The notes under the pieces: generated by a model
Database searches by the model: none
What the model saw: only the letters and a program-made list of their open reading frames with translations
What the model was told of the DNA's origin: nothing
In this document: positions 1,690 through 60,547 of the stretch, piece after piece
Position numbering within the stretch: position 1 is the stretch's first letter
Layout of the letters: the number at the start of each line of letters is the position of its first letter
Source: Mobula hypostoma
Lineage: Eukaryota
Reading direction: 5' to 3'
Length of the DNA: 64,000 bases
Assembly: GCF_963921235.1 (NCBI RefSeq)
Contig: NC_086108.1
Span: forward strand, 44,270,001-44,334,000
Made by a program: the position numbers and the translations under genes

Positions 1690-2105
1690 TCCATCGTTCT
1701 TGCTGCCTCAGTAAGGCCGCCAGCATAATCAAACACTCCACTTACCATTCTCCATCTGACATTCTCTCTTCGCCACTCTCCCAACAGACAGAAGATACAA
1801 AAGCCTGGAAGCACATACTAACTGGCTTTAGGACAGCTTCAATGCCATTGTTATCAGACTCTTGGAACAGATCATTTGTATGTCAAGATGGGCTCTTGAC
1901 CTTTTAATCTACCTCATTATGATCGCGCATTTTATTGTTTACCTGCACTGCATCTTCTCTGCAGCTTTTACACTTTATTCTGTATTGTTACTGTTTTACC
2001 TCATTTAACCTCAATACAAGGTGTCCAAATTTGATCTGTATGAATAGTATGCAAGACAAGTTTTTCCACTACGTCTTGGTACAAGTGACAATAATAAACC
2101 AATGC
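1690..2105 (+). mobile_element. Rex1/Babar-like LINE 3' end fragment
   Basis: Resembles the 3' ends of the other Rex1-like copies here (e.g. 49480-49790) and ends at aataaacc. Confidence 0.55.
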
Positions 2106-2224
2106 CAGATTCTGAAAATCTGGATCAACACGCAAAAAAATGCTGAAGGAACTCTGCACAACAGACAGCGCCTATGGAGGAAAATAAACAGTTGATGTTC
2201 CAGGACGAGACCTTCATCAGGATC

Positions 2225-5180
2225 ATCTGTCCCAATCGGCTCCAGCCCATTCCGATTAAACATCTCAGTTCCTCTGAACCAGATCCCCAGCACCTTCAGG
2301 TAGTTGGACTGGATGGTGAAGGGTACATTGAATCAGTCGGGCCAGTTACAGAAGAGCATGGCCTCACTCTTCCTGAGACTTTAGCCTCTGATGCCAACTT
2401 GAACTGACTGCAGATGCTGATCAATCTGTGAACTGACTATGAATCCAAGCAGAAGATGGCAACATCGTCCATGTACAGGGAGGATTTTTGACTTGCCTGC
2501 TTTCTCTGCTGACAATGTGGCCTCTTTTACGTCCTTGTCAATCTTAATGAATTTGGCAGAGGGTTCTAAACGGCACACAAACAGAATGGGAGAGTAAGCA
2601 ACTCTGCCTGACTCCAGTCTTGATGAGGAAACTGTTATGTTTTGAAACTTCAAAGCATTAAAATAACTCAAAAGAGAACATGGGAGTCTGAAATGCAAGT
2701 CTAACTTCATGTTTTATTTTAAGCAAGGTATGCACATATCATGTGGTAGCAGCATGACATATGCAATTTACATATTTTTACTTATAACATAATGAATTAT
2801 TTAAACAAAGAATGCTTGATCAACATAATTACAAGATCACACAAATATTTCTGAAATATTAAATACATAACAGAAACTGTCTGTCTCCCACGCAGTAACT
2901 TAGACTTTAATACATACTGCCTATCTGTGCAGAGCTGTTGGATCCATTTCTGGTTCCCTCCCCAAAGACTATGTCTACCATGTATGTGCGTGGGTCTTCT
3001 CCTTGTCGCTTCTGACCAGGCAGACATCCACCTGGGTCAGTTTTTACCATCTCACACCTCTGGGAGGCCGTGTTGTATGTAGCCTTTCTGTCATATAGAC
3101 CAACATAGATCCACCTGCAGATCCTCATTTGACCTGCCTGAGAGGAGGCTACTAAGTCTTCCTTAAAACACGGAGCTCTGGCTGTTAACATGAGCACACT
3201 TCATCCTGCTCCACAAAGAGGATCCTGGATCAGATGTTCGTGGAGGATTCAGAGGCAAAGAGCTCAGCTGGCAACTCTTGGGCTTCCTCTGTCACATCCA
3301 CCACCTTTGACTGCAATAGAAGTTGCTCTAAGTCTGTCTGGAGATGGCGCAATTCCCTGACTTTGTCTTGTTTCCTGAACGCCTTTGAGAATGAAGAACT
3401 CGGTTGCTTCACAGTTCTCAACCTCTGTAACAGCTCTTTTGTTCCTTGATATTATCTGGGGTCAGTAGCTTGACATTCAACGTCTCAGTCCTCCTGCCTG
3501 ACTTCTGGTCCTCTTGTAGGTGACAGGAGGCAATGATCAAAAAAGAACACTTGTGTAATGTCATTGGATTCAAAGTGACTGCTTTTGATGTGAAGAGGAG
3601 GTCTACCTGGCCCGTACTGCAATGTCCATTCCAGCCCAAATGGGTTGCAGCTGTGCACTGCGTGCATGGGTGCTGAAACAGTCATGCAATTTTACAACTT
3701 TAGCTCTTTCCAACCGGAATCCAGAACTGTTATCCAGTCCCTCATCAGCACTGCTGGATTGTCCAGTTGCCTCAGTGATGCATTTGAAGTCACCAGCCAG
3801 AAGGACAATACAGGGACATCACCAGCAACGGAGGTAGTTGTTGGAGGTCAGCTGGCCATTTGCTCAGCATGGGCAAGGCATACACATTAATTCACTGCAG
3901 CGGAGTCTTATAGTACTTTACGTCTGCCACACAAAGCCCCCTACCCACCACCTCTTTTGACTCCAGAGACAGAGAAGTTGCTTCCCCGCAGCAAAATTCC
4001 CAAGCTGAAAGCACAACTATCATTCTCTGCCACTCCTCCTAACCCCAACCATATAGACAAACCCCGGGACAACCATCACAACCTCCTCTGATAGTTATGG
4101 ATGTGTGGCAGCCCACAGTCATGGAGAAAGTTCACATTACCTTAACCTTGGTGTTAACACATCACACAGTTCTCTTCGCACTGTGCACAGACATGTCACA
4201 TTTATCTCCATGGATGTCTGAGTTCAGGATTCACAAACACAGTCAATCAGCTCAAACCCTCATACCCACAACCACGGTGAAATGCCTTACTACTTTTGGA
4301 CTCAGGTATTGGGAATGGTTTTCCCGCAAGGTGCGGCAATGCTGGTTGTGTCTGGACGGAGATCAGAATGTGTTCCTGTTTTGATCCGTCTCTGACTGTT
4401 GTGCACCCATCTGTGGTGTGTCGGCCACAGTGTTGCTCCTGGTCTCTCAGAGCTGTGGTGTGCTTGACACCTTGCTACTCCTTGTCTCCCACAGTTCAGG
4501 GCCATGGACTCCATGCTGCTCCTGGTCTCCCTTGTGTATTTGTCTGAAAGCTGCTGACGGTTTTGTCAACTCCATTTTGGTGCTTTCTCTGCCTGTGACA
4601 TCGGTTTTCTATATTCATCCTCCAATGAGGAACAATTGCTGGCATCTGAATGCTACATGGTCTTCTTCTTCCCATTTACTCTCACAAGCCAATTGTCTCT
4701 TGGCTAATATCTTCTGAGACTTCTTCCTTTTCACCACCTGCCACTCCCTCTTTCTTCCACTCCTTGCCTTGAGGGTCCTGGGAGCTTGTGGCTGGGGTTT
4801 GGATGCTTGAGGGGGTTGGCCTTTCCTCAGTTCTGGCCTCAGTTTCTGCTGAAGCCCCTGTACTGGTAGAGGGTGCACCAGTATTCCTCAAGGTGTTGTT
4901 GGTGTCAGCTCCCCTCTTATTGCCTGACCATAGGCAGGGAGACATTTTGGGCAGGCCTTGCAGAGGTGACCCACCTCCCCACATAGGCTACAACTTTTGC
5001 CTTCTTTGTAGTCTTTGGTCTGGTGGCCTTCCTGCTCGCGGTTCTTGTAGATGACTGCATTGGTCTGGGCCACCACACATCCAAGGTTGTTGCAGTTATG
5101 CCACCATCTGGGTTGTTCTGCATATACCATGTACCGACAGTTCCTTCCAACAGCAAACACAGATGGAGGGTAGATGATGG
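2225..5180 (-). mobile_element. degenerate Tx1/L1-clade LINE (ORF1 zinc knuckle, endonuclease, RT fragment)
   Basis: Minus-strand CSLCGEVGHLCKACP knuckle (~4950-5000), endonuclease-like remnants ~3500-3900, and RT SLYMDDVAIF plus YLKVLGIWF at 2270-2480. Many stops and frameshifts; interrupted at ~2480-2880. Confidence 0.75.
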
Positions 5181-5181
5181 C

Positions 5182-7866
5182 TTCTTCTTCTTCTTCTATT
5201 TCCGGCTGTTTAGATGCATCTAGGCGTATTACAGCCCTCCGCAGGATGTATAATTAATTATAGAACTTCAAGGAACTCAAATTCTCGAATACAACCTAGT
5301 CTCACGTATAAACTGAATAATAGACTCTTCAATCAGATGTTGATTCTCGTGGTGGCCAAACAAAGATTTAATAGAAAACCAAAATAAATTTAAGCCAGAT
5401 AGCCTCTTGAACAACATTCTTCTTTCAATTTTGTATCGATTACAGCTCAGTAGAACATGCTGGACTGTCTCTGGACTACCACGCTCACATAATCCAGTAG
5501 GATGTTTTCCTGTTATCTTTAAATAATAGTTTAGCCCACAATGCCCCAACCTAAGTCTTGTAAATTTCATCATATCTCTACGACTTAATAGGTGACAGTC
5601 TGAGACCTTCTTAACTAGTGGGTGACTAGAAAAATAATGCCTGCCCCTTAATTCATTTTTCCATTCCTCCTGCCACTTCTTCTCTATACCTTTTTAATCC
5701 TACTTCTCAATTCTGCTCTGCCTAGGGGAACTCTAATTTCTACTTGCCTGCTCTGCAAGGAAGACTTGGCAATGCCATCCACAATTTCATTTCCCTCCAT
5801 CCCAGCATGCCCAGGTATCCATGAAAATCTAACTGCACAACCCATCTTCCCTACTCTAAACAACACTAAGAGAATCTCAGTAACTATGTCAGGATAAGCT
5901 TTTGATTTACTCCCTTTTATAGTCTCTAAGGCAGCAGCAGAATCCGAACAGATGATAACCCTACATGGTCCAGAGTCTTCTATCCACCATAAGGTCCAGA
6001 GTATTGCTAATAATTCTGTTGCAAAGACAGAAACACCATCTGAAACCCGGTGACCAATCTTAACTCCAAGTTGAGACACATACATCCCAAATCTCAAAAT
6101 GGGTAACTTTTAATTTTACTTTGGCGTTCTGACTTCTCCTGCAAAAGACACTTCGGTGGACAGCTGTGATTGAATCCATTTAGTTTTGCCCAATACTGCA
6201 GGCCCAACTGAATTCGTCTTAAATGTAGAGGCACTTCTCCCATCTCCACACATAATGCCGGGACTGATGTTGTTCTAAAAGCTCCACAACAGAGTCTAAG
6301 TGCTTTGGACTGCACAGTGTCTAGTTTTCCAAGCACTGCCATAGCAGCGGAACCATAAGCAGTACAACCATAATCTATAACTGATCTAATCATAGCTAGA
6401 TATATTAAGTACATAGTTTCCCGCCCTGCTCCCCAGTCACATCCAGCAATACTTCTCATAACATTTAAAACTTTCTCACACTTTCCAATTGTTTTATCTA
6501 CATGAACCCTCCAAGTAAGTCTTTCATCAAACCAGACACCTAAAAACTTGAATACCTTGACTCTTTCTAGTGGAGAATCATATAGATACAATTCACAATC
6601 AGGAATCTTTCTTCTAAAACCAAAAATCATGTATTTGGACTTAGAAGCAGAAACCCTGAAACCCCATTTATTAGCCCAGTTTTCAACTGATCTTAAAGCC
6701 TTTTGTACCTGCCTTAATATATACTTGACGTTTCTTCCTCTTTTCCAGTTTGCACCATCATCTGCAAACAATGATTTGCCAAATCCTGTCCCTACCTGAT
6801 CAAAGATATCATTTATCATGACATTAAAAGGCACTGGACTAATGACACTTCCTTGAGGGGTACCATTACCTATTTTAACTGACTTGGAGCTTGTTCCGCC
6901 TATTCTTACTTGAATTGTCCTTTCCTTAAGGAAATCTTTGATCCAATTAAACATTCTACCTCTAATTTCTGCATCATAGAGTTTAATTAATAAGCCATCC
7001 TTCCATAGTGAGTCATATGCTCTTTCAATATCTAGAAATACACTTACCATTACGTCTCTATTTTGAAATGCTTTTTTAATATCATATCTAAAAGGGCGAC
7101 AGATTCCATTGTTGATCTTCCATTTCTAAAACCATTCTGATAGGCAGCAAAATGTCCCTTATTTTCCAAAAAATAAACAAGTCTGTTGGTGAGCATTCGT
7201 TCCATAGTTTTACAAAGCACTGACGTTAAAGCTATAGGCCGATACGAACTAGGACTAGACGCGTCCTTACCTGGCTTTAAAACTGGAACTACCACCGCAT
7301 GCTTCCATTCTACTGGTAATTTTCCTTCTTTCCACACTTAATTAAACAATGCTAGAATTTCTATTAATACAGAGTCATCCTGTGTACATACATCTATTGA
7401 TGCTTCCAGACACATCTTCAGTGATGTTCCTGGAATCATCGGGTGTTTTGGGTCTTTCAACGTCATACAACCTCCTCCAGGTGATCCAGCCAGGGCTGAT
7501 CAGACCCCAGCTTGTGTCCAGATGGCTAGCTACTTATGACTCCATGGCTCATCTAAATGCTTAAGCAATTCATAACACAGTCCATCCCTACCAGGAGAAG
7601 TGTTTGAACCTGATTGGACAGCTTCCTGCAATTCCTGAAGGGAGAAAAACAAATTTATGGACCTATTTTCATCCAAACTCCTGTCCAATTTCCAACTTTC
7701 CTTTAACATAATTTCCTTTCTCAAATCACCTAACACTCCAGAACTTTGTAACGCTTGGAACACCTCTACAAACATATCAGCCTTTTCCTTATTGGTTACA
7801 GCTTCAATATCTCCTTCCAGCAAAGCTGGGACAGATGGTTTCCTATATATCCCTGACATTCTGTGA
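5182..7866 (-). mobile_element. 5'-truncated I/Nimb-group LINE with RT, RNase H and C-terminal zinc finger
   Basis: RT motifs YRPIALTS, FLDIERAYD, GTPQGSVISP and LFADD (6094-7337). RNase H-like ORF 5684-6097 (VFATELLAI, ICSDS, WIPGHAGMEGNEIVD). RLRLGH...CxxxxxETVQHVLLSC at 5277-5573. (GAA)n tail at 5182-5197. Confidence 0.85.
7380..7548. mobile_element. 169-bp unclassified insertion inside the RNase H LINE, 5-bp TSD
   Basis: tcatc at 7375-7379 and 7549-7553. Removing the insert restores HLDDSV in the LINE ORF. Confidence 0.6.
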
Positions 7867-8591
7867 AAATTGCATGTACGTAAAAGGTATAGGAGAGGTC
7901 CAAAACTAAAAAAAAAGTGTTGCTTCAAATTTGATGAGTACCAACAATGGCCTTGATCTTGCTTTTTTTTATATTGCCCAATAAGGACTGGTTAAATCCT
8001 GAATTGGCTGATTCTTTCCCTGTTCTCTCCTAGGACTCGACATTGCAGGTCAAGATCCTTCATCGAGCCCAAACAAAAGGTTTCAACCCATAATGTTGAC
8101 TGTCCATTTCCTTCCACAGATGCTGCACTGACCCACTGCCGGCTCCAGTTGTTCCAGATTCCTACAGCTGTAATTCCTTGCATCCTCAACTTGTAAAATG
8201 TTCTGATTGTGCATCAGAATTATCACCTTCTATTCCAGACCTTGATCAAATTCTAACTGGAAAACATGTTTAATTTTGGACACAAAATGTCAGGAAACAT
8301 AACAAAGATCGAAAATGCTGCAAATACTCAGTAGGTCAGTCCATGGCTATGGGATTAGAAACAGTTAACATTTCAGGTCAAAGCCTGACCTGTTGAGTTT
8401 TTTTTAAATATATATTTCTTCTCTTTGTTTTAGATTTCCAGCATTTGCAGTTTCTTTGATGTTCAATTCAGGAGCACGTTGGCTTTGGAATAGACTCTAA
8501 TAAATTCACAAGTATGACACCAAGGCTTAGATGGCAAATGACAAAAGTCTGGTAGGATGAAAATCGACTCCAGGATTTAAAACAAAGCTGT

Positions 8592-12615: not shown

Positions 12616-13439
12616 GTTTACTTGGTATTTCTAACTGTTAAGAGTGATTCAGCATTCACATGTTGGGACCCAACAGTAACAAAAATGGGGAAGTTGTTGG
12701 TGCCAACTCCTTCTTCTCTTGATCGCTGTTACACCTATTCTCAACCGTACAGGCCAAGTTTGTGACGATCTGATCTGCCGGTTATGTTTTAATTTGCGCT
12801 AATTGCAAATTATTTTTATGTTAAGCATACAAACGTACAGCTTCACCTTGTTAGCACCGCATTTTAGGTACCAACCCCGCCTCGACTGTAATGCTAAAGT
12901 GTAGAGAACGCCCCTCTAGAGATTGTAATGTACAAACGCGTTTGTATATTGTCCTGCTGCTGCGGATGGCTCAGTGTTTCAGAAATGCCGTTTTAAGCTA
13001 CTAGATTTGTTTTGTCTGCTTGACGCAGCCTCAGTGACAACCAAGAGTTTTCAGCATTTTCTATTTCTATTAAATGCTTTGATTGGTATGTCCATGGGGG
13101 GGGGGCATCCTCAGTAAAATAACTTCGTCTGTACAGTAACTGTGCAGTAGTTGTTCTACCAATACTAAATCGTGTCAGTTCAGACTTCTGGATTCTTAAT
13201 TGGAGGGATAGAAGATAGGGTGAAGAGGGTGGGGAGGGAGGGGCTGGAAGAGAAGAAGGAAGTGAGGAAAAATAGGAGATAAGCATCTACCGACCTTTCC
13301 CTGAGGTTCCGCTCCAAGGAACAGGCCGATCGAAACCAACAGAAATATATAGCCACATCTCCCGACCAAACCCCGAGGCTGAGGGAGAGGAGAGCTGTGC
13401 AAGCTTTTGGAGCAGCAGCATAAGCACCTGGCAATTTGA

Positions 13440-13610
13440 AAGTTGTATTCACTCACCTCGGGCGCCACTAATCCAGCACCCCGCCGGAACACGCCTCCGA
13501 CTCCAGACTCAGTCAATCAGGCGCGCTGGGTTAATGTACGGTTGCCGCTGAGCCAATCCCTGGTCCGCTATAAAGCTGCTCCACTACGCAGGACACACGC
13601 TGCGTACTCA
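13440..13610. promoter_or_regulatory. CpG-rich promoter-like region, possibly bidirectional
   Basis: Local CpG enrichment, AGCCAATC (~13551-13558), TATAAA (13569-13574, +) and a minus-strand consensus donor CGAG|GTGAGT at 13457/13456. Confidence 0.55.
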
Positions 13611-13743
13611 CTCCTGATACGTTTCTTCGGAATTACCTGGCATGCATGTCAGTTACAATTTAACAGCGCACTTACCTGGGGTACTGACCTTCGAGTTATT
13701 GAAGAATATTATTCTCTACAACGGTCCAAGAACTTACATTTGT

Positions 13744-13798
13744 ATGGAGCCCGCCAGTGTGATAATTTGGAAAACACTTTGCATACTGTTGACAGGAC
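13744..13798 (+). pseudogene. putative signal-peptide exon of an unrecognised disabled gene
   Basis: ATG GAG...: MEPASVIIWKTLCILLTG followed by a phase-1 donor C|gtaatt, ~170 nt after the TATA box. Confidence 0.4.
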
Positions 13799-17498: not shown

Positions 17499-18764
17499 AA
17501 CTGAAGGAAGAGTGAGTAAGGGATTTGAAAGTCGGAGGGGGAGGGGGAGATCCAAAATGATAGGAGAAGACAGGAGGGGGAGGGATAGAGCCAAGAGCTG
17601 GACAGGTGATAGGCAAAAGGGGATACGAGAGGATCATGGGACAGGAGGTCCGGGAAGAAAGACAAGGGGGAGGGACCCAGAGGATGGGCAAGAGGTATAT
17701 TCAGAGGGACAGAGGGAGAAAAAGGAGAGTGAGAGAAAGAATGTGTGCATAAAAATAAGTAACAGATGGGGTACGAGGGGGAGGCTTCCCTTCCTCCACT
17801 ATCAACTCTGCTCTTAAACGCATCTCCCCCATTTCACGTACACCTGCTCTCACTCCATCCTCCCGCCACCCCACTAGGAATAGGGTTCCACTGGTCCTCA
17901 CCTACCACCCCACCAGCCTCCGGGTCCAACATATTATTCTCCGTAACTTCCGCCACCTCCAACAGGATCCCACCACTAAGCACATCTTTCCCTCCCCACG
18001 CAACTCCCTTGTCCATTCGTCCCCCCCATCCCTCCCCACTGATCTCCCTCCTGGCACTTATCTGTGTAAGCGGAACAAGTGCTACACATGCTCTTACACT
18101 TCCTCCCTTAACACCATTCAGGGCCCCAAACAGTCCTTCCAGGTGAGGCAACACTTCACCTGTGAGTCGACAGGGGTGATATACTGCGTCCGGTGCTCCC
18201 GATGTGGCCTTTTATATATTGGCGAGACCCGACGCAGACTGGGAGACCGCTTTGCTGAACATCTACGCTCTGTCCGCCAGAGAAAGCAGGATCTCCCAGT
18301 GGCCACACATTTTAATTCCACATCCCATTCCCATTCTGACATGTCTATCCACAGCCTCCTCTACTGTAAAGGTGAAGCTACACTCAGGTTGGAGGAACAA
18401 CACCTTATATTCCGTCTGGGTAGCCTCCAACCTGATGGCATGAACATCGACTTCTCTAACTTCCGCTAAGGCCCCACCTCCCCCTCGTACCCCATCTGTT
18501 ACTTATTTTTATGCACACATTCTTTCTCTCACTCTCTTTTTTCTCCCTCTGTCCCTCTGAATATACCTCTTGCCCATCCTCTGGGTCACCCCCCCCCTTG
18601 TCTTTCTTCCCGGACCTCCTGTCCCATGATCCTCTCGTATCCCCTTTTGCCTATCACCCGTCCAGCTATCGGCTCTATCCCTCCCCCTCCTGTCTTCTCC
18701 CATCATTTTGCATCTCCCCCTCCCCCTCCAACTTTCAAATCCCTTACTCACTCTTCCTTCAGTT

Positions 18765-18800
18765 AGTCCTGACGAAGGGTCTCGGCCTGAAACGTCGACT
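18765..18800 (+). ncRNA. minimal hammerhead ribozyme motif (Penelope pLTR)
   Basis: agtc-CTGACGA-agggtctcggcct-GAAA-cgtc-gact. Confidence 0.75.
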
Positions 18801-19570
18801 GCACCTCTTCCTACAGAATTTGTTTAATTACCCAGGTTTAATAGTCTAGGAAATTGGATGCTTTCCATTTATGTGTTATCTCCAGTTCTTTGTTGACCAA
18901 TAACTTGCAATGCTTCTTTCCTCCTCCCTTTCCATTCTCTCCTTTTCTAACTATGTGCCGAGTCTTGCATTGGCCTGTATCTCAGGCATGTCCAGTCTCA
19001 GGCACAGGGAATCATGCTGAGGCTAGAATTCTGGAAATAATTTACTTTGATATTATTTCTAATCCTTTTAATTCCCCTTTTAAAATTATATACCCACTTA
19101 TTGCTGGGTTCTTATGTTGACCAATAACTGCCTTCTCTCTCCTTTCCATCAAGGTCTTATTCAGTCACAAAAATGGAAAATACTGGAAAAGGTTTGGATG
19201 AAACATTAAATCTGCTGCTCTTTCCACAGATGTCAAGTGTTTCTAGCAATCTCTGCTTTGTTTCAGTCTTCCAGCATCCAAATATTTTTTTGTTATTCAG
19301 TCAAAACTGTCCAACATTTTGAAGATGGCACATCAGATCTTGCTCACCAGCTGAATATTTCTAGCCATTTCTATATTTTTTGGAAGATTCCATCAGTGGT
19401 TCTTAATACAGAACTGTCCAAATTGTTTACATTCTTAATTTTATCTATTTCCTTTCCCTTGAGTAACTGCATGCTGCTGTTTGCCTTTACTTTGTTTTGG
19501 CTACCAAACCCACCTTTCAATTCATGTTCATCTCTGAGATTGGGTGGTCAATCTTAAACATGTTTTACAG

Positions 19571-19760
19571 GATGAAGCTAGAAACTTGTACATCACTGTT
19601 TGCTACACAATTAATGTGTCAGTGGTGGCACAGTACATTTGAATGGTCCTCAAGATCTGCAGTTTGTTTCCCAGGAAAATGTGCAGCCAAACATCAGATT
19701 ATTGAAGATTACAGACCCTTTGGAAAACACCATATTGGGATTTCCTATAGACCCGATGGT
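19571..19760 (+). pseudogene. disabled exon, repeat-domain copy 1 of an unrecognised gene
   Basis: Acceptor tgttttacag|. Reads CVSGGTVHLNGPQDLQFVSQENVQPNIRLLKITDPLENTIL/ISYRPDG with upstream stops and a 1-nt frameshift. Donor gtaaga at 19761. Homologous to 20605-20682. Confidence 0.65.
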
Positions 19761-20059
19761 GTAAGACATTCTTTTCAAAAAGTTACACATTATTTCTTAT
19801 TTCTAACTTTTGAAATATTATATTTAATTTATCTCATACTTGATACTTACAATTCTAATCTATCATCTTCAAATTAAGGAGCATGTTTTAGCTTGAAGCT
19901 GTGTAATCAATTCCCTAGATACTCATGAAAAGTGCACATGTAATCCCTTCAATAAATGAGGAAAATCTTCAGGGTGTGACTGATTGTTTTAATGGCTTTA
20001 CCAAACTTTGGCTGTTAGCGACACCAAAGAACTGACAAAATAGCATCATAAAATAGAGG

Positions 20060-20420
20060 AAAGACTTGCATTTACATGGTGCTTTTTACAACTTATAGTC
20101 CTTTGCATGTAACTTTATGGGCCAATGTGTGGTCACTAATGCAATGTAAAATACATAGCAGCTAACTTGCATGGAGCAAGTTCTCACAAAATGTAATAAT
20201 GGTAAGATATCCTTAACAAGACCTTTGCTCTATCTCAAGATAGGATTATGCAATCTTTAATGTAACATCTAATCAAAACGATACAGTCTCAGACAGTTTA
20301 GCTGTCAATTGGTGCAGTAATGAATACAAACAGAAAACTTTGTGCTCATTTTCTGAAATGAGACTTGAACCCAACAAATCTGCCCCCAGTGGAAAGAGTA
20401 TTACCAAATAGTCCATATCT
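20060..20420 (-). mobile_element. highly degenerate ancient Deu-domain-type SINE
   Basis: Patchy similarity by eye to the reverse complement of 24700-25080. Confidence 0.35.
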
Positions 20421-20519
20421 CCTGATGTTTCACAACCACATCCCCCAGATCAGCATTTTTAAGTCACTACTTTAAATGGTGTATTAGACAAAATGATATG
20501 AATCATAGAATTATTTCAG

Positions 20520-20682
20520 TTATGAGCCACAGGTTGATACGTGGATTACATTCACAGAAGAGAGTTGAATTCTATGTATTTGACCAAAGAAGAGACAACT
20601 CTTACAACTGAACATTAGGTTATTAAAAATTGCAGGTCTTTTATAAAATACCTTTATCCAAATTTCCTTCAGACCTGATGGT
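20520..20682 (+). pseudogene. disabled exon, repeat-domain copy 2 of an unrecognised gene
   Basis: Acceptor ttatttcag|. Reads QLNIRLLKIAGLL*NTFIQISFRPDG (TAA at 20644-20646). 17 of 26 residues are identical to copy 1, 8 of them via synonymous codons. Confidence 0.65.
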
Positions 20683-21129
20683 TAAAAGGTATTTACTTCA
20701 GAGAATTTCAAGTTATTTTAAGTTCCCAACTAAGTTTTGAAATGTTTTAAATTTATTTAAGTTAGAAAAGTTGCGTGATATTTATATTTTAATCTATCAT
20801 CTAAAACTGAGAATAGTTTCATCCAGAAGCTCTGACATTGAGATAAAAAGCAGACAGAACCAACTAACACATTCTTCAGTTTAGAAGAATAAGAGATAAT
20901 CTCATTGAAATGTGAGATTCTTGCAAGACTTGAGAGGTAGAATGTCAAGAACCAGAGCTCAGTGCCTCAAAATAAAGGGTTCAGCTGTTCGTTACAAAGA
21001 TGAGAAGAAATGTTTTCACCAGGAATATCATGAACCCTTGGAATATTCTTAACAAAGGAGCTGTGGAAGTTTAGGGCCCAGTATATTAAAGGGATTGATA
21101 GATTTTAGGGAACCCTGGCTGATGAGAGG

Positions 21130-23570
21130 CTATAGTAAAGAAAAAGAAGGAAGCATACATTGCATTTAGATAATAGGATATGACTGAATCCCTCATGAGT
21201 ATAAAGTTTTTAAAACCAGTCTTAAGAGGGAAATCAGGAGGGCAAAGATATGATATGAGATGGGTTTAGCAGGCAGGGTTGAAGATAATCCAAAGAGGTT
21301 CTTCAGTAATATTAATAGTAAAAAGGTGAACAAGGAGAGATTAGGTCCACTTAGAGACCATCAGGGCTGCCTACGTATAGAGCAGCAGGAGATGACTGTG
21401 GTTTTTAATGTCTATTTCTCCTTGGGGTTTACTAAGAAGAATACCATGGATGCCAAAGAAAATAAGGGTAATAAGTTGTGAGGTCTTGGATCATATTCAT
21501 ATAGGTAATGAGGAAGGAGGTATTTGCAGTCTTCAAGTGTATTAAGGTGGCCAAATCACCAGGGCCTGACCAAGTGCACCCCTGAACCAGGGAGGAAATT
21601 GCAGAGACCCATTTAGAGATAGTTTGCCTTATCATTGGCCACTGGTGAAGTTCCTGAAGACTGAAGGGTGACTAATGTTGTTCCATTGTTCAAGAAAGGT
21701 AGCAAGAACTGGCCAGTGAGCATGACTTCAGTTGGAGGGAAGCTACTGGAGGGATTTAGAGGAACTCAACCTATCATCATTTGGATAGTCAAGGCCTGAT
21801 CAGCAAGAGTCAGCATGGCTTTGTACATGGGAGATCATGTCTTATGAATCTTTTTGTGCTTTTTGAAGAGATAACCCAAATGGATTATTGAAGGTAGGGC
21901 AGTGGATGTTGTATATACAGATACAGCAAGGCTTTTGACAAGGTCCAACATGGCAAGCTGATCTGGAAGATTTGTTGTATGGATTCAAGGGGAGTTAGCA
22001 CAGCAGCACCTCCACTTCCTTAAGAGTTTGTGATGATTTGGCATGACATCTAAAACTTCGACAAACTTCCATAGGTGAACAGTGGAGTTATATGGACTGG
22101 CAGCATCACAGCCTGATATGGAGACACCAATGCCCTTCAATGGAAAATTCTACAAAAAGTTGTGGGAATGGCCCAGACCATCACAGTTAAAGCCCTCTCA
22201 ACTATTGAGCCTATCTGCATGAAACACTGTTGCAAGAAAGCAGCATCTGTCATCAGGGACCCCCACCACCCAGGATATGCTCTCTTCGTGTGCTGCCATC
22301 AGGAAGAAGATAAGCCTCAGGACTCATAGCACCAAGTTCAGGAACAGTTATTACCCCGCAACCATCAGGCTCTTGAACCAAAGGGGATAACTTCACTCAA
22401 CCCACTTGCCCCATCATTGAAATGTTCCCACAACCAATGGGTTCAATCATGTTCTTGATAATTTATTGCTTGCTTGCTTATTAATTAATTAATTAATTAA
22501 TTCTGTATTTGCACAGCTTGTTTTCTGCACTCTGGTTGAACGTCCAAGTTGGGCAGTCTTTCATTGATTCTGTAAGAGTTATTATTCTATAGATTTATTG
22601 AGTATACTGCAAGAAAATGAATCTCAGGGTTTTGGATGGTGACGTATATGTACTTTGATAATAAATTCACTTTGAACTTTGAAATTGGTTCAATGATAGG
22701 TAGCAGAGGGTGAAAGTTAATGATTGATTCTATGACTGGAAGCCTGTGAGTAGTGGGATCCCCCATGGGTGAGTGTTGAGACCTCTTGTTACTTGTTATT
22801 AGCAAGTTTGATGATCATTCTAAATTAAGGCATCTTGTTAATTGTGAAATAGATTACATTCAATTGCAAAGAGATCTTGATCAGTTAGGGAGATGGGCTG
22901 AGGAATGTCAAATGGATTTCAACTTAGATAAGCATGAGGTAATGCATTTTGGACAAGTCCTAACCTGAGTAGGACTTAAAAAGCGAATGATAGGGCATTG
23001 ATGAGTGTTATGGAACAGAAGAACCTGTGGGTACAAATACATAGTTTGCTGAAAACTGCCACACAAGTAGACAGGGTGCTGGAATGCTGGCTTTCATCAG
23101 TCAGGACATTAAGTTTAGGAGTAGAGGCATTATGTTGCAGATATATAAGTTGTTGATGAGGCTGTGCTTGGAGTGTTGTGTAATTTCACTCACTCTGTTG
23201 TCGCAAAGATTCAAGCTGGTGCAGAAGAGGTTTACAAGGTTGCTGTCTGGACCAGAGGGCCTGAGTTATGAGGAGGTGAGGAAAATGAGGGGTGACCTTG
23301 TAGAAGGATATGGATAAGGTGGGTTGGGGAGCCAATACTAGAGAACACAGATACAAGAGGGGAGAGATTCAAAAGGAAACCTGAGGGGTAACTTCTTTAC
23401 ATAGAAGGCAGTGAGTAGTTGGACTGAGCTGCTGGAGGAAGTGGTCAAGGTGTGCACAATTGCATTTGGATAGGTACATGTAGGGGAGGGGTCTCAAAAA
23501 GTTATGGGACAACTGTGGACAACTGGGTTGTAGTCAGCATGGACCATTTGGGCTGAAGAGCCTGTTTACT
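21130..23570 (+). mobile_element. old CR1 ORF2 remnant, interrupted by a Rex1-like insertion
   Basis: DNPKRFF (ORF 21260-21481), KSPGPD, AFDKV, SKFDD/LQRDLDQLGRW (22786-22968), MLAFISQ (23084). Confidence 0.8.
22000..22682 (+). mobile_element. Rex1/Babar-like LINE 3' part nested in CR1
   Basis: Remnants of the DPHHPG..LF..LPSGRR..FRNSYYP region. Tail gataataaattcactttgaactttgaa. Confidence 0.7.
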
Positions 23571-30299: not shown

Positions 30300-30700
30300 G
30301 TTCCTGGAAGTCCAAATAGCAATTTGCTGACGTGTCATTGTTTAGTTAAAAGTAATCACCTAGTTTAAATGCCCGGCAGCTAATAAAGTAGAAGCCCTTT
30401 GTTCAAGTCTGATGCGTGGCACCCATTCTCTCTTTTCGTACCGTATGACAAAAATAGTTCCTTGATTGATGCCGAGTCATCGTGAGTGCGACGGATGAGT
30501 GACGGCCTCCACCTCCGAAGGCCGTCTCATTCGCCCTCTTCATTGGTTAGCTCACCATGATTGACACGCAATTGCGTCCGCCTCCTACACATCTTCCTGC
30601 CTCTGAGTGGTTGCGACGCCTGTCACTCAGCTTGATTGAGCAGCTGCTTGCTGCTGAATGGTCCTTGGCGCTTTTCTTCGGTGCGCCGCCTTAGTTTGTT
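30300..30700 (+). promoter_or_regulatory. KEAP1: KEAP1 promoter (CpG-rich)
   Basis: Sharp CpG rise from ~30410 to ~31450, inverted CCAAT (cattggtt 30541), TGATTGAC/TGAGTGAC motifs and an ARE at 30470-30480. It is the nearest promoter-like region upstream of the first KEAP1 coding exon. Confidence 0.7.
30470..30480 (-). promoter_or_regulatory. antioxidant response element (NRF2-sMAF site)
   Basis: Minus strand ATGACTCGGCA matches RTGACnnnGCA, one mismatch from ATGACTCAGCA. Confidence 0.6.
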
Positions 30701-30829
30701 TTAGGTGGGATCGGGAATCTGTCATGGAGCTTCAGTTTTGGAGATAAATCAAGCTTGGGGGGAGTTTATGAAGACCCGGGCGTGAGCGTGTAAAAGGCCG
30801 GCTTGCATCCTCAGTTCCCAGGGCCGAGT
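30660..30829 (+). other. KEAP1: probable non-coding exon 1 of KEAP1 (start approximate)
   Basis: Consensus donor |GTAAGT at 30830 within the CpG island. Human KEAP1 also has a non-coding exon 1. Confidence 0.5.
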
Positions 30830-33626
30830 GTAAGTACTCAGAAGGGAGGAACAGTAGAGGCGGCCTTTCTCGTCGTTCTCACATGTCGGGGTGAAAAACT
30901 GGGGGCGGCGGCGGCCGAGAGGTTACAAAGCAGCAGGGGGTCACTGCAAAATGTCCGAGCAGCATTGTTATGGACTGTCGGCTGCACCGGCGGGCTTTGT
31001 AGATCATGGTGTTGCAGTCTGTCCCAAGGTTAGGTGGAGGAATGTGTCCAGGCTTCACCTCCAGATCTTACTCTTGAAGCTTGGCCTGCGTGGAAGGCAA
31101 AGCCGGAGTCAGCGCCGCGGCATCTGCTCTTCTTTCTCCTCCTCCTCCTCTCCAGTACTCTTTCTATTCCCTTTATGGCCAAACTCTATTTTCCTGAGTT
31201 CGGTTCGGTCCAGCCAGACCTTGTACCAAATTAGCGAGAGCAAAACCTGAAAGGGCTCGTCTTTGGAGAAATCCGTGACCTAGACGAAATGTTAGCACAA
31301 GAAAGCTAGATAAAATGTTCTGTCAGTAGAACATTGCCGATAGTGTATTACAAAGCTTGTGGGCGCGCTTTGCAATTGTCTCCGACCGCTGAAATACGAC
31401 TTGCTGCGCAATGTGTGTGGTTATCAACTGGTTCGCCTTCAGTCTTAAATTGTAGCGAAACCTCTCCGAGAAGATATAGAAGTGACCATTTGACACATGT
31501 TGCAGAGTCAGTGGTGTCATTTAAACTGCCTCAACATTATACTTCAATTACGTAGGGGTTGTTTTTATTTTAAACAAGTTGAAAGCGTTTTGCACAAAAT
31601 CAAAGAGAATTAGAAAATTAATCATCATAAAACCGTTTTTAAAAACAATCCAGAAATTCCATGTGATATCAGAATTTGTCCTTTTAATCCAATGGGCCCA
31701 ACTATATATATAGAAACACACATTCAACAAGTCTCTAGAATGGACAGTGACTTTATACAGTAACGTAAATTGTTTAAAAATATATATTTACAGCAGGCAG
31801 GGTCTTAACTGGGTTAACTGAACGTGGGGGTTGGGGGGAGCAATGGTGTTCTATTGTTCCTTTGTTTAATGTCAGTATTTGTTCTTCCTATATCAGTTTC
31901 GGGATCAAGGTCAGTCTAAATAAGTGTTATCCAAAAGAAAGGATAGCTTTCAGTGAAATAGTCAAAGCTCAGTTTTTGAACCATTGGATCTAAATTACCA
32001 GTGCATTTATTGGTTTGCATCCTTTTAACTGTACCTTGTCAAAACGTCTTTGTGTGACTGACTATGCCTTGTCTATGTAACTTGCATCTGTTAAATAACT
32101 TTATACCAATAATAGGTAACCCTAAAATATTGAAGATGCAGACATGCATACAAAGATTTTGTATTTTTCTATTTTCTACTTGCCATCTCTCTTTAAGGTC
32201 ACCCAACCAATTTAAGTTAGTCCCAGCCAGTAAATATGTGCATATTATCAGCTTTTGAAGTTCCATTTCTTTTGCATTTCAGTCACTCGGTTGTATACAA
32301 TTGAAATTCACATGTAAAACTTTTTCCCATCGCGCACTAGTACTTTTCTTTCCATATTTTTCAATAAACTACCATATTACCAGGAGCTTTGTGGCTCAGG
32401 CCAATATTTATCCCACTCACAACACCGCCACATTCAGTTATTTCACCAATCCTTTGTGAAATGTCCTGTTGCACAAATTAACCATGTTTCACAGTATTGT
32501 AAGTAACTAAGCTTTTAAAATTAATTTGTAACAATATTGTGAAGAATCATATGAATTCAGCCTTGCATGTTTTCATTTCAAGACTTTCCAAATTTGAGGT
32601 TTCAACTTAATTTTCCTCTTAATAATGCAACTCCCAGTGTTCTTAGTTCAAAATGAAGTTGGAATGTGAGGTACCTCAGTAAATCCAGTTTACTTATGGA
32701 TACAATATTAACAGCATTGGAGCTAAAGGTGGAAGAAAAGAGCAGCTATGCAGCAAGATCTGTTGGTGAATAAAGAAAAATGTGTGCTATGACAGCTGTT
32801 GGTGAAAAGAACAACATGTGTGATGGGAGCTGTTAGTGAATACAGAGGAATGTGTGGAGAGACCTATTAGTGAATAATGAAAGCTGAGAGTTTTCTTCTT
32901 TTCTGTACATCAGAAAGGATCCATTACTGATGAGTGATGCTGTTAAACTATTCTATTCCATTCCTTTGCGATGATATGTGCGTAGTTACATAAGTGAAGA
33001 TTTTTTTTAAATTCTAAAAATAGCAGAATATTTTGGTGGCATATAGAATAACAAAGGTCCGAGATCATGAGGAACTTAATATAAATGTATTTTTTAAATT
33101 GTATCATTAAAAATGTTGTCATTATTTTTGAGTAGATGCTTATGGTGGTGTAGTTACTGAGTCAATCAGCAAATTGGGTTGCAACATCATTTCCCTGGAT
33201 TTGTGCTTAAGTATCTTGTTCCTGCGTTTAAGTGACCTGAGGTATTACAAAGTAATGGATACAAAACCCCAGATGAGGCTTGATTTTAATGAAGCTTGAC
33301 CTGGAGGGGAAACTTCTTTTTCCCCAATAATATGTAAGTACAGCTAGTTTAATGAACATAAAATATTCTTACCTCAGCTGCAAAAATGCATTTTCTTTAT
33401 GGAAACTACTTTTTTCTGTGTCATAATCTGTGCTTGGGAATGGTTGTCCTTGTTCTACCATTTGAACAGTTTGACTGTGACACAGGAATCAACCATCTAA
33501 AATTTATGCTTAAATATTTTTATATTAGGTACTTTTAATATTAAATGTTTAATTGCCATTTGAAGTTGGTGCTTCTGTTCTGAATTAGTTACTGGAGCCT
33601 TAATGGAACATAAGAATATGGTGTAC

Positions 33627-37377: not shown

Positions 37378-38402
37378 CAGTGGCATGCAAAAGTTTGGGC
37401 ACCCTTGGTCAAAATTTCTGTTACTGTGAATAGCTAAGTGAGTAAAAGATGAACTGATTTCCAAAAGGCATAAAGTCAAAGATGACACATTTCTTTAATA
37501 TTTTAAGCAAGAAAACTTCTTTATTTCCATCTTTTACAGTTTCAAAATATCAAAAAAGGTTCTATTCAAAAGGTTCAAAGGAACATCTAAACAAGCCTGA
37601 TGCATTTTGGAAACAAGTCCTGTGGGCTGATGAAGTTAAAATAGAACTTTTTGGCCACAATGAGGAAAGATATGTCTGGAGAAAAAAGGGTGCAGAATCT
37701 CATGAAAAGAACACCTCTCCAACTGTTAAGCACGGGGGTGGATCAATCATGCTTTGGGCTTGTGTTGCAGCCAGTGGCACAGGGAACATTTACTGGTAGA
37801 GCTAAGAATGAATTCAATTAAATACCAGCAAATTCTGGAAGCGAACATCACACCATCTGTAAAAAAAAGCCGAAGATGAAAAGAGGATGGCTTCTACAAC
37901 AGGATAATGATCCTAAACACACCTCAAAATCCATGATCGACTACCTCAAGAGGCGCAAGCTGAAGGTTTTTCCATGGCCCTCACAGTCCCCCGACCTAAA
38001 CATCATCGAGAATCTGTAGATAGACCTCAAAAGAGGGCTTTTGCAAGACGGCCCAAGAATCTCACAGAACTAGAAGCCTTTTGCAAGGAAGAATGGGCGA
38101 AAATCCCCCAAACAAGAATTGAAAGACTCTTAGCTGGCTACAAAAAGCGTTCACAAGCTGTGATACTTGCCAAAGGGGGTGTTACTAAGTACTGACCATG
38201 CAGGGTGCCCAAACTTTCACTTCGGGCCCTTTTCCTTTTTTGTTATTTTGAAATTGTAAAAGATGGAAATTAAAAAAGTTTTCTTGCTTAAAATATTAAA
38301 GAAATGTGTCATCTTTAACTTTATGCCTTTTGGAAATCAGTTCATCTTTTACTCACTTAGCTATTCATAGTAACAGACATTTTGACCGGGGGTGCCCAAA
38401 CT
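37378..38402 (+). mobile_element. internally deleted Tc1-like transposon (IR/DR type)
   Basis: TA|cagtggcatgcaaaagtttgggcacc left end, ~170-bp inverted repeats and an inner gggtgcccaaact repeat at ~38203. Transposase motifs [32 protein letters not shown]. Right end clipped. Confidence 0.9.
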
Positions 38403-38959: not shown

Positions 38960-40932
38960 TCTGAGTCGGTGGTAAGGAAGGCAAATGCAATGTTAGCATT
39001 CGTTTCAAGAGGGCTGGAATGTAAGAACAAGGATGTGATGCAGAGGCTTTATAAGGCATTAGCCAGACCACACGTGGAGTATTGTGAGCAGTTTTTGGAC
39101 CACTTGTCTGAGAAAAGATGTGCTGGTGTTGTAGAGGAGGTATACGAGAATGCTTCTTGGAATGAAAGGATAGAGAGTGTTTGATGGCTCTGAGCCTGTA
39201 CTTGCTGGAGTTCAGATAAATGAGGGACAATCTCATTGAAACATATCAAATATTGAAAGGCCGAGATAGAGAGGATGTTTCTTATTGTATGTGAGTCTAG
39301 GACCAGAGGGGACAGCCTCAGAATAGAGGGACATCCATTTAGAACAGAAAGGAGAAATTTCTTAAGCTGGAAGGTGGTGAATCTGTGGAATTTATTGCCG
39401 TGGACAGCTGTGGAGGCCAAGTCATTGAGTTTATTTGAAGTGGAGCATGCTAGGTTCTTGTTTAGTCAGGTTGTGAGGGGTTACATGGAGAAGGCAGGTG
39501 AACAGGGTTGAGAGCAATGTTCCCTCTAATTTTTAGTAGTCAGTGTGTGCAAAAATCTTACGTTGTGCAAATTTTTTTTTCCTGTGACAGAAGTATGTGC
39601 GCACTGAATGCACACATGGCACAGTTTATGTAGGTTTACAAAATATTTGACATAAAATTGCACAGAATAACATACATATTTAAGTCACTCAGTTATTTTT
39701 TCTCTCTCCTGTCTTTGGCATTTACCCATTCTTTGTAAACTCTATCTAGACTAATAGAACTTCCATCCAATTGATAGCTTTTGATTCTCATTATCATATC
39801 CAAATGACATTCACCTAAACGGTTTCTCAGCTGGTTTTTGAGTCGATTCATTAGGCTAAAACCTCGTTCACAGTCCGCACTAGACGCAAGAAAGGTTCCC
39901 CCAATGTCCATCAACTGTTCAAGGTCACAAAACTGTTCATTTTGAAGTACAAATGCCACCATTTGAGCAAAGTTTGAAATCAGTTTGGATTTAATTTTTT
40001 CTTGCACGGAAAATTTGAAACCATTAAACTGTCTAACTATTTCAGTATTTTCAGCTAGAAAATCATGATATTTTAGACATAAGGCATTAACTTGTTCATT
40101 GCCAAATGTGAAGTCACAATGTACAATTGTGGAGAAATCAAAAGCTGACCATTCTTGTACCTCATCTTCAGGAAACCTTTCTTCTAAATGAACACAAAGA
40201 CTATTTATAAAAGTCAACAGTGAACTTGTATCTACTGTGACGTTTTCTTCACGTTGTTAGCTTAGCAAAACTTTAACTTTGTCACTCCATGAAACATTGT
40301 CTCCCAGATACTGCTTTCTTATCTTGTTAATTTTGCCTCTAGCAAAATGAAGTGAATCAATCAGTGTCAGGCCACTCTTTTGCAGAATCTTGTACAGTGC
40401 AGCCAGTTCATCAAAGATATGATTTAAAACCTGTAAAGCTACTTTGTATGTGATGTTTATCAATTTCTTGTGACAGTATTTAGCCATGGGGTCATTTGAC
40501 TGATCTTTTTCAATAAAAACTTAGTAAGCTATCTACAGGATTTGAAAGAAATCTTTGTAAACTTTACGATATGAACACTGTCCGCCAAAGCTGGCTGCCA
40601 CCGTGATGCAGCTGTACAAACCGGAACAGGAAAGGGGAGGTGACGTAAATTAGTGACGTGCATTGTGGTATTTGAAAAACCGACTAACTAGTTAACAGAA
40701 ACATTTAGCTAAAAGATTACTTTCAATAAGTTTAATTACATTATTTTAGGTAACTAACCTTTTGTGCGCACATTAATTTCCTTTGTGCGCTGGTTGAAAA
40801 ACGTGTGTGCGTTCACACGTGCACAGCTTGGAGGGAACATAGGTTGAGAGGGATAATAAATCAGCCATGATAGAATGGTGGAGAAGACTCAGTAGGCTGA
40901 ATGGTCTGGTTCTCCTATGTGTTGTGGTCTAT
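38960..40932 (+). mobile_element. CR1 3' fragment split by a hAT insertion
   Basis: KANAMLAFVSRG...RPHVEYC and VVNLWNLLP. The 3' UTR resumes at 40851. Confidence 0.85.
39515..40842 (-). mobile_element. internally deleted hAT transposon with C-terminal dimerisation domain
   Basis: TIRs caatgttccctctaa / ttggagggaacatag and exact 8-bp TSD gttgagag (39507-39514, 40843-40850). ORF 39693-40217 has ASSADCERGFSLMNRLKNQLRNRL...LDMIMRI. Confidence 0.92.
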
Positions 40933-44284: not shown

Positions 44285-45275
44285 GAAGGAAGAACTTTGG
44301 GGAGGGTTTGAAGAATGCTGGTAGTTGGAAAAAAAACAGTAATTTTAAAGACAAAGGGGTGGGGGAGGGGAAGCAGGGAGGTGATTGGCAGGAGAACAAT
44401 GCAAAGTAGTAGAAGGATGCGGAACTATGAGGGAGGTGATGTGAAATAGGAATGGGGGGGGGGGAGGGAATTACTGGAAGTTGGAGAATTCTATGTTCAT
44501 ACCAGGGGGCTGGAGACTACCTAGACGGTATATGAGGTGTTGCTCCTCCAACCTGAGCTTAGCCTCATCATGGCAGTAGAGGAGGCCATGTATGGACATA
44601 TCCGAATGGGAATGTGAAGCAGAGTTGAAGTGGGTGGCTACTGGGAGATCCTGTCTGTTGTGGCGGACGGTGCGGAGGTGCTTGACGAAGCAGTCCCCCA
44701 ATCTGCGTCGGGTTTCACCGATGTAGAGGAGGCGGCACCGGGAGCACTGGATGCAATAGATGACCCCAACAGACTCACAAGTGAAGTGTTGCTTCACCTG
44801 GAAGGACTGTTTGGGGCCCTGAATGGTGGCAAACCCATTAAACCCGACACAGATTGGGGGACCGCTTCGTCGAGCACCTCCACTCCGTCCGCCACAACAG
44901 ACAGGACCTCCCGGTAGCCACCCACTTCAACTCTGCTTCCCATTCCCGTTCAGATATGTCCATACATGGCCTCCTCTACTGCCATGATGAGGCTAAACTC
45001 AGGTTGGAGGAGCAACACCTCATATACCATCTAGGTAGTCTCCAGCCCCTTGGTATGAACATAGAATTCTCCAACTTCCGGTAATTCCCTCCCCCTCCCT
45101 TCCTCTATCCCTATTTCACATCACCTCCCTCATAGTTTCCGCCTCCTCCTACTACTGCGCATTGTTCTCCTGCCAATCACCTCCCTGCTTCCCCTCCCCC
45201 ACCCCTTTGTCTTTAAAATTACTGTTTTTTTTCAACTACCAGCATTCTTCAAACCCTCCCCAAAGTTCTTCCTTC

Positions 45276-46369: not shown

Positions 46370-47941
46370 CAAACCCCATTTCCAGAAAAGTTGGGATATT
46401 TTCCAAAATGCAATAAAAACAAAAATCTGTGTGATGTTAATTCACGTGAACCTTTATTTAACTGATAAAAGTACAAAGAAAAGATTTTCAATAGTTTTAC
46501 TGACCAACTTAATTGTATTTTGTAAACATACACAAATTTAGAATTTGATGGCTGCAACACACTCAACAAAAGTTGGGGCAGAGTTAAAATAAGATTGAAA
46601 AGTGCACAGAATATTCAAGTAACACCGGTTTGGAAGACTCCACATTAAGCAGGCTGATTGGTAGCAGGTGAGGTATCAGGACTGGGTATAAAAGTAGCAG
46701 CCAAAGGCTCAGTCTTTGCAAGCAAGGATGGGTCATGGCTCACCCCTTTATGCCAAAATTCGCAAGAGAATTGTTAGTCAGTTCAAAAGGAACACTTTTC
46801 AACGCAAGATTGCAGAGAATTTAGGTCTTTCAACATCTACAGTAGATAATATTGTGAAAAGATTCAGAGAATTCAGAGACATCTCAGTGCGTAAAGGGCA
46901 AGGTCGGAAGCCACTGTTGAATGCGTGTGATCTTCGAGCCCTCAGGCAGCACTGCCTAAGAAACCGTCATGCTACTGTGACAATTATAGCCTTACTTCGG
47001 TAAACCATTGTCACTCAACACAGTCAGTCGCTGCATCCAGAAATGCAACTTGAAACTGTATTACGCAAGGAGGAAGCCATACATCAACTCGATGCAGAAA
47101 CGCCAGCGAATTCTCTGGGCCCGAGCTCATCTCAGATGGACTGAAAGACTGTGGAACCGTGTGCTGTGGTCAGATGAGTCCACATTTCAGCTAGTTTTCG
47201 GAAAAAACGGGTGTCGAGTTCTCCGTGCCAAAGATGAAAACGACTATCCAGATTGTTATCAGCAAAAGGTGCAAAAGCCAGCATCTGTGATGGTATGGGG
47301 GTGCATCAGTGCCCACGGCATGGGTGAGTTGCATGTATGTGAAGGTACCATTGACTCTGAGGCGTATGTTAGGATTTTAGAGAGACATATGTTGCCATCA
47401 AGGCGACGTCTCTTCCCGGGACGTCAATGCTTATTTCAGCAGGACAATGCCAGACCACATTCTGCACAGGCTACAACAGCGTGGCTTTGTAGACACAGAG
47501 TGCGTGTGCTTGACTGGCCTGCTGCCAGTCCAGATCTATCTCCTATTGAAAATGTATGGCGCATCACGAAGAGGAGAATCAGACAACGGAGACCACGGAC
47601 TGTTGAGCAGCTGAAGTCTTATATCAAGCAAGAATGGACAAAATTTCCAATTGCAAATCTACTACAATTAGTATCCTCAGTTTGAAAACAATTAAAAAGT
47701 GTTATTAAAAGGAAAGGTGATGTAACACAATGGTAAACATGCCTCTGTCCCAACTTCTGTTAAGTGTGTTGCAGCCATCAAATTCTAATTTTGTGTATGT
47801 TTACAAAATACAATTAAGTTGGTCAGTAAAACTATTGAAAATCTTTCCTTTGTACTTTCGTCTGTTAAATAAAGGTTCACGTGAATTAACATAGCACTTG
47901 CATTTTGGAAAATATCCCAACTTTTCTGGAAATAAGGTTTG
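46370..47941 (+). mobile_element. full-length Tc1 (DD34E) transposon, transposase disrupted
   Basis: TA on both sides and ~200-bp TIRs (caaaccccatttccagaaaagttggg...). Transposase 46728-~47735 with GRKP, VLWSDES and QQDNARPH-(34)-PIENVW. Frameshift at ~47000 and stop at 47683. Confidence 0.95.
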
Positions 47942-56624: not shown

Positions 56625-57655
56625 CACACACAATGCTGGAGGAAGTCAGTAGGTCAGACAGCATGTATGGAAATGAAAGAACAATTAACGTTTCGGGCCA
56701 AGACCCTTCTCCAGGTTGAAGGCTACCTATATAGAATATGAGGTGTTGCTCCTCAACCCAGAGTGTGTCCTCATCATGGCAGAAGAGGAGGCCACGGACT
56801 GGCGTGTTGGAACGGGAATGGGGTGGGAATTAAAATGGTTTGGCCACTGGGAAACTCTGCTTTTGGCAGATGGAGTGGAGGTGCTCGTCAGTGCGGTCCC
56901 AAATTTACGTCAGGTCTCACCTTTGTAGAGGAGGCTACATAAGGAACACTGGACACAATAGACAACCCCAACAGATTTGCAGATGAAGTGTTGCCGCACC
57001 TGAAAGGACTGTTTGGGCCCTGATTGGAGCTAAAGGTGGATGTGAATGGGCAGGTGTAGCATTTCTGTCACCTGCAGGGATATGTGCCAGGACCAAGATT
57101 AATGTGGAGAGACAAACGGACAAGGGAGACATGGTGGGAGAGTGGACAGAGGAGTTAAGGTGTTTGGTGGTGGTGTCCTGTTGGAGATGGTGGAAGTTGC
57201 AGTGAATGATATGTTGGATGTGGAGGCTCATGAGATGGTAGGTGAGGACAAGACGAACTCTGTTCCTGTTAAGGCGGTGAGAGGATGGGGTGAGCATGGA
57301 TGTTCCGGAAATGGAGGAGATGTGGGTGAGGGCAGCATCAATGGTCTGCCCTTTGAAGAAAGAGGATATTGCTATTGTCCTGGCAAGAAAAGTCTCATGC
57401 TGGGAACAGATGCGGCAGAGGTGAAGGAACTGAGAATATGGAACAGCATTTTTACAGGCGACAGGATGGGAGGAGGTACAGTTAAGATAGCTGTGGGAAT
57501 TGTAAGTTTATAAAAGACGTTGTTGGTAGATGGTTTATATCCAGAGATGGAAACAGAGATTGAGAAAGGGGAGAGAGGTGTCAAAAATGGACAAAGTGAA
57601 TTTAACTGCAGGAATGAAGCTGCAGGCAAAGTTAAAGCTATTGAAGGTGAAGTAA
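56625..57655 (-). mobile_element. old Penelope-like element
   Basis: LVLTYH...IQHII..NFHHLQQD (56935-57297), a diverged homologue of 58778-60267. Confidence 0.8.
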
Positions 57656-60267: not shown

Positions 60268-60547
60268 AGTTAAAGTCTACTCATCATTTAAATCTGTCTT
60301 GTTCAAGATTTCCACGTGCAAATTAAGACTGGAGTTTGAAAGTGTTTTACTGTAGGGAATAATATACATTAAAAATGAATGTAGTTTTTTTCTGTAGTTG
60401 TTAGGATTTTGTTTCTTGGTTTCATAACTTCAATTTGTCTTTATTTTTACAGATAAATATTTGATCAGTTTTTGCATGAAACACAAATTAAATCAAATAG
60501 TAATTTTTTTCTTTTGCAAGAGTAACGTTCCACTATATTATTAATAG

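Follow-up and report, generated by a model that had tools for sequence, protein, structure and literature searches.

A pair of short repeats in the interval between the ACOT11 and KEAP1-like genes of Mobula hypostoma is best explained as the relic of a duplicated small protein-coding exon whose parent gene has probably since disappeared, a reading to which we give about even odds (roughly 0.5). The two copies form a duplication with definable limits in intergenic DNA, within a 64,000-nt stretch of contig NC_086108.1 that was analyzed as a whole (the window). Substitutions between the copies favor third codon positions in the core of the duplicate and nowhere else. A 1-nt gap in that core is common to two related organisms, one of which has lost the core of the second copy.

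The duplicate and its codon pattern

The pair is a real, old and local duplication of about 220 bases (Table 1). The cores align as 77 nt against 78 nt with a single 1-nt gap and 22 mismatches, which comprise 18 transitions and 4 transversions and include 13 at third positions. The repeat similarity is 67% over 194 columns (E 2e-7), and the local alignment score of 179 compares with at most 102.5 in 100 shuffles. To the right, homology continues for about 140 nt beyond the core (score 85, against a maximum of 28.5 over 400 shuffles). This flank retains conserved islands, including an exact match of 12–13 nt between the copies. On the left side homology stops sharply (P 0.69). The core has a single indel in 78 columns, as compared with six gap openings in 152 columns of flank. 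A first-pass annotation of the sequence had taken the cores as the full extent of the duplicate; the cores are real, but the unit is longer. Its alignment counts are reproduced, with 17 of 26 residues identical and 8 of these synonymous under its own gap placement, and 18 and 9 under the best placement (after 19731–19733). The 1-nt gap in copy 1 and the internal TAA in copy 2 that it listed are likewise present; its account of them as a loss from copy 1 and a gain by copy 2 is a supposition about direction.

Table 1. Positions in the window of the duplicate, its candidate exons and the flanking promoters
Feature	Positions	Strand	Basis or remark
Copy 1, core with its right flank	19682..19900		Sequence alignment
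Copy 2, at a distance of 921 nt from copy 1	20603..20831		Sequence alignment
Copy 1 core with third-position bias	19684..19760		77 nt against 78 in copy 2; gap near 19731–19739
Copy 2 core	20605..20682		Plus frame: TAA at 20644–20646 and at 20683–20685
Candidate plus-strand exon, copy 1	19675..19760	+	86 nt between a CAG acceptor rich in pyrimidines and a GTAAGA donor at 19761
Candidate minus-strand exon, copy 2	20606..20674	-	69 nt without a stop, in phase 1-1, between a CAG acceptor and a GTAAGA donor
Minus-strand counterpart, copy 1	19685..19752	-	68 nt, TAG at 19747–19745, acceptor CGG, donor GCACAT
ACOT11 CpG island and inferred untranslated first exon	about 13295..13750	-	CpG island, weak skate transcript ORF match
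CpG island of the KEAP1-like gene with its inferred first exon and GTAAGT at 30830	30501..31250	+	CpG island; coding exons from near 51906

Only two copies are found in 264 kb. Searching the genome by DNA, protein and motif returned no third copy, at a sensitivity that misses copies about 30% diverged; copy 1 used as a query did not find copy 2. The protein search gave one match at E 0.15 that had no DNA match, and 4 of 6 and 1 of 3 outside matches in the motif searches end within the motif region. Tandem Repeats Finder reported nothing at the duplicate locus.

The core differences divide into 13 synonymous and 7 replacement changes, for a pN/pS of 0.16 as compared with a neutral median of 0.60 (single-frame P 0.0007). 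When neutral duplicates were simulated and scanned in all six frames and all windows of 20–30 codons, P was 0.001–0.036 over seven settings, and a cruder test that counts only identical and synonymous codons gave 0.009–0.10; the correction in these values covers frames and windows within one duplicate pair, not the many repeats inspected. All 13 third-position changes in the core are transitions, vs. 29 of 50 elsewhere (P 0.003). The periodicity ends at the core edge, with the 19 mismatches in the adjoining 48 gap-free columns falling 6/7/6 over the three phases. First and second positions of the core (9 of 51 changed) are better kept than this adjoining block (P 0.025), and third positions (13 of 26 changed) are not (P 0.46).

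Other attributes weaken the pattern. Overall divergence is equal, with a K2P of 0.394 in the core and 0.397 in the whole flank, and the flank fits a divergence of 30–40% better than the 50% seen at core third positions. The replacements are not conservative, with a mean BLOSUM score of -1.0 on the plus strand and -1.5 on the minus strand vs. -0.3 +/- 0.44 for neutral change. In addition, two third-position changes are recent. The base of copy 2 is carried at 19748 by related organisms F and K and at 19754 by organisms B, F and K, and two of the three recent core changes among those listed are on third positions. Without 19748 and 19754 the simulated P is 0.014–0.14 and the phase test gives 0.11. 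The ccc/cct pair at 19754 had been offered as a trace of long purifying selection, which it cannot record because the change postdates the common 1-nt gap. Of the broader claim of a purifying-selection signature, the synonymous excess and its confinement to the core are borne out, and the radical replacements speak against it. The coding-type signal in the core is moderate and short of decisive.

Relatives, strand and homology searches

The comparison with relatives draws on 4 of 24 listed sequencing runs, including contigs of organisms B, F and K. In F and K the copy 1 core shows no indel, as all 27 gap letters of F and all 3 of K lie elsewhere. The 1-nt length difference therefore predates the split of F and K from this genome. 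An assembly error as the source of the gap was rejected on this common occurrence and on the presence of 175 of 175 sampled words in four runs of the possible source sample, a set that is not independent of the assembly. As far as tested, the lesions are not assembly errors, with the relatives bearing on the 1-nt gap. In organism B a single contig spans the stretch with 28 substitutions and 1 gap letter. In organism F, positions 20485–20742 are replaced by 16 letters, which deletes the copy 2 core (one contig, depth 8.1).

Raw differences from this genome are 2–9% in organisms C, F and K, vs. a K2P of 0.39 between the copies. If rates are equal, the duplication would be several times (about four to eight times, on raw differences of 5–9%) older than the splits from these organisms. 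Differences are unevenly placed, with lower divergence of the copy 1 region in K (17/338 vs. 44/486, P 0.03) and of the copy 2 region in C (12/539 vs. 58/1132, P 0.006); divergence of the copy 2 region in K is 9%.

In organism K, a 1006-letter contig at 19309–19928 (run X20, whose RNA type is a guess) runs unbroken and unspliced across the boundaries of copy 1, which counts against the exon reading. It stops 23 nt before an AATAAA at 19951, and the plus strand has a TATA-like site near position 13570. The contig may derive from non-coding transcription that diverges from the ACOT11 promoter, or it may be DNA. Almost none of the sampled words occur in four runs that are taken, by guess, for RNA, which is evidence neither way.

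A practical lesson from the locus concerns strand. By a property of the genetic code, one antisense frame has its third positions in common with the plus frame. In the duplicate this frame has 16 of 25 residues identical, 9 of them synonymous, and returns the same 13/7 count of synonymous to replacement changes, so neither the strand nor the peptide can be named from the synonymous signature. The plus-strand peptide NIRLLKI...RPDG cannot be singled out as the protein in the way originally proposed.

Splice-like cassettes are found on both strands, which means that at least one is a product of chance; strict cassettes of this kind occur at a background of 0.46 per kb of unique sequence. On each strand a complete splice-site pair is found in one copy only. 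In the case of the plus strand, copy 1 is open from its acceptor (19674) to a TAA at 19762, and organisms F and K read GTAAAA at its donor. On this strand copy 2 shows a weak in-phase AAG at 20587–20589 and the internal TAA, and it lacks a donor where one would match that of copy 1. In the case of the minus strand, the GTAAGA donor of copy 2 falls on the sharp left edge of homology. The counterpart in copy 1 has a CAG acceptor in organisms B, F and K and a GT donor in organism C only. Disabling lesions number one per copy on the plus strand and affect copy 1 only on the minus strand, where copy 2 provides the sole lesion-free cassette. The earlier description of both copies as disabled applies to the plus strand at most, where copy 1 is open as far as the TAA at 19762; on the minus strand, copy 2 has an open frame from its CAG to its GTAAGA. 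We lean to the plus strand over the minus strand (55:45) because of its larger number of identities, the presence of Y/F where the minus strand has a stop, and an in-phase AG in both copies.

Searches for homologs have been uniformly negative. The plus reading gave two word-search candidates among proteins of 78–2000 aa, with none at E<=10, and the minus reading gave no candidate among proteins of 94–2000 aa. The plus reading had no match among 1.84 billion protein representatives or in the PDB. The protein collection includes shark and ray proteomes. The queries are 33–53 residues long, which limits the power of protein searches, and words common to both copies would flag intact orthologs as candidates at lengths of at least 78 (plus) or at least 94 (minus) residues. 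Pfam assigned no family to any of five readings, including no transposable element domain and no WD40 repeat. An Atlas search of two readings gave no usable match and is uninformative. None of the fetched ACOT11 proteins, with their N-terminal extensions, matches the duplicate. The suggestion of a repeated protein domain thus found no homolog or family in the readings searched. The first-pass annotation could assign the motif to no named domain, and these searches gave none either. For the transposable element origin that it had named as fatal to its reading, the searches turned up no domain and no family.

RNA searches gave little more. Rfam returned no match at gathering score in the window and five weak matches in 18800–21200. 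One of the weak matches is to SNORD61 (RF00270), a box C/D snoRNA, on the right flank of copy 2 at 20772–20839 (20.5 bits vs. a gathering score of 43, E 8.1). The likeness amounts to this weak match over one flank; the locus differs from SNORD61 in scoring below gathering, in lacking a match in copy 1 and in having no host intron. The SNORD61-like match overlaps the part of the flank that holds the exact match between copies as well as overlapping GATA-like words. All eight stretches examined fold like their shuffles (z -0.65 to 1.47), and the two-sequence consensus fold of -8.85 kcal/mol is uninformative. Literature searches listed no work on this locus.

Competing histories

In the favored history, an exon together with one flanking piece of intron would have been copied 921 nt apart, and both copies would have been translated long enough to accumulate synonymous transitions. 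The gene would then have been lost, or the exons dropped from it, with the lesions and deletions coming afterward and the relic left to decay between ACOT11 and KEAP1, where no present function is expected. The general class is that of the pseudo-exon or unitary pseudogene relic. The duplicate is like this class in its coding-type substitutions, intergenic position and loss in one lineage, may be like it in its lesions and splice-like ends, and differs in that neither a parent protein match nor further exons were found. It behaves like a pseudo-exon but has no parent protein among the matches to its short queries, whose power is limited. Tandem exon duplication of the kind that produces repeated domains or mutually exclusive exons also offers a likeness in the two near-equal, exon-sized copies, their 921-nt spacing and their synonymous divergence. 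However, the duplicate lies outside any identified coding gene, and neither strand has more than one intact copy. Unlike the tandem exons of a living gene, the copies do not sit within one gene; the inferred first exon of ACOT11 lies to one side of them and that of KEAP1 to the other. The ISxRPDG ending resembles the xFSPDG turn of WD40-type repeats and the IRYRTDG motif of RTE LINEs. The likeness spans five residues only, with no Pfam, PDB or protein match.

A close second in our ranking, and possible if somewhat less probable, is a neutral non-coding duplication in which transitions clustered in phase by chance and scanning then picked them out. Equal divergence of core and flank, radical replacements, the weak P of 0.014–0.14 on older changes and the lack of a protein or family match on either strand all fit this explanation. 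So do the third-position placement of recent changes, the dispensability of the copy 2 core in organism F and the commonness of splice-like cassettes. It is opposed by the exclusively transitional third-position changes, a bias that ends at the core edge, corrected P values of 0.001–0.04 on the present sequence and the scarcity of core indels relative to flank gap openings. Much less likely is a duplicated regulatory element or small-RNA relic of the divergent promoter region, kept in patches. The duplicate lies 6 kb and 10 kb from the inferred promoters of ACOT11 and KEAP1, and its conserved flank islands, its lower divergence at copy 1 in K and at copy 2 in C, and the SNORD61 match are what such an element could leave. 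Against this, no RNA family reaches gathering score, the snoRNA likeness is found in copy 2 only, no fold improves on shuffles, the lower divergence is inconsistent across lineages (9% at copy 2 in K) and the 3-nt periodicity is left unexplained.

A marginally more doubtful proposal is that the pair is the remnant of an undescribed cartilaginous-fish gene of short repeated exons, lacking any relative across billions of proteins, and that some rays still use copy 2 as a cassette exon of 69 bases on the minus strand. Very improbable is the related case in which only copy 1 is dead and an unannotated transcript toward ACOT11 still includes copy 2 as a minus-strand cassette exon (69 nt, phase 1-1). 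The CAG after 10 of 14 pyrimidines, the stop-free interior, the donor at the homology edge and the agreement of the open phase with the biased phase favor such an exon, but it is deleted in organism F, does not match the fetched ACOT11 proteins and has no homolog or partner exons that could be found. The least likely account of all is that the copies are two old insertions of one transposable element family and took their synonymous pattern from its coding history. Remains of LINEs and DNA transposons abound in the window, and insertions of this type look like dead coding fragments; however, no third copy was found (in searches that miss copies about 30% diverged), no element domain was detected, and the common sharp left edge fits one local duplication. 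As it stands, the dead-exon relic would hold little wider significance, given that dead exons in duplicate are ordinary objects, as are old duplications in intergenic DNA. If an intact ortholog exists in sharks or skates, the pair would be the trace of a lineage-specific gene, once located between ACOT11 and KEAP1 and lost in rays.

The ACOT11–KEAP1 interval

The window is vertebrate DNA, and the duplicate falls inside a 17-kb gap with ACOT11 (minus strand) and the KEAP1-like gene (plus strand) arranged head to head on either side. The inferred first exon of ACOT11 is marked by a weak match of a skate transcript ORF to 13339–13295 (73% of 15 aa, E 0.3) that ends at a GT. The ATG exon sits outside the window, immediately to its left at -144 to -332 on the minus strand, and an exon 73 kb upstream, found by ranking shorter ORFs and reading them by eye, is also ACOT11; the nearest named ACOT11 proteins are from Mobula. 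On the other side, a BTB-BACK-Kelch gene on the plus strand matches KEAP1 (E 3e-146). The head-to-head position of ACOT11 suggests, by synteny, that this may be the fish and amphibian Keap1a paralog. Sharks are reported to have two Keap1 genes (PMC7452054).

Pfam searches of 26 window ORFs and 120 of 641 flank ORFs found KEAP1 and transposable element domains only. No further exon of a lost gene turned up among these ORFs. A strong CpG island about 30 kb to the right of the window end (observed/expected up to 1.0) is probably the promoter of the next gene.

The mobile element remains of the window are diverse. Penelope-like fragments of the GIY-YIG type occur at 17759–18469, 44471–45084, 56935–57507 and 59112–60280, and some of these are local tandem pieces. 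On the minus strand at 2069–7991, two decayed LINEs read by eye are unlike the CR1-like majority; one has a zinc-knuckle ORF1-like piece and the other a reverse transcriptase followed by an RNase H-like piece. Within the inferred first intron of KEAP1, Tc1-like transposase remains and a hAT-like fragment (Pfam hAT dimerisation, E 0.048) are found at 37458–38195, 46698–47685 and 39693–40520.
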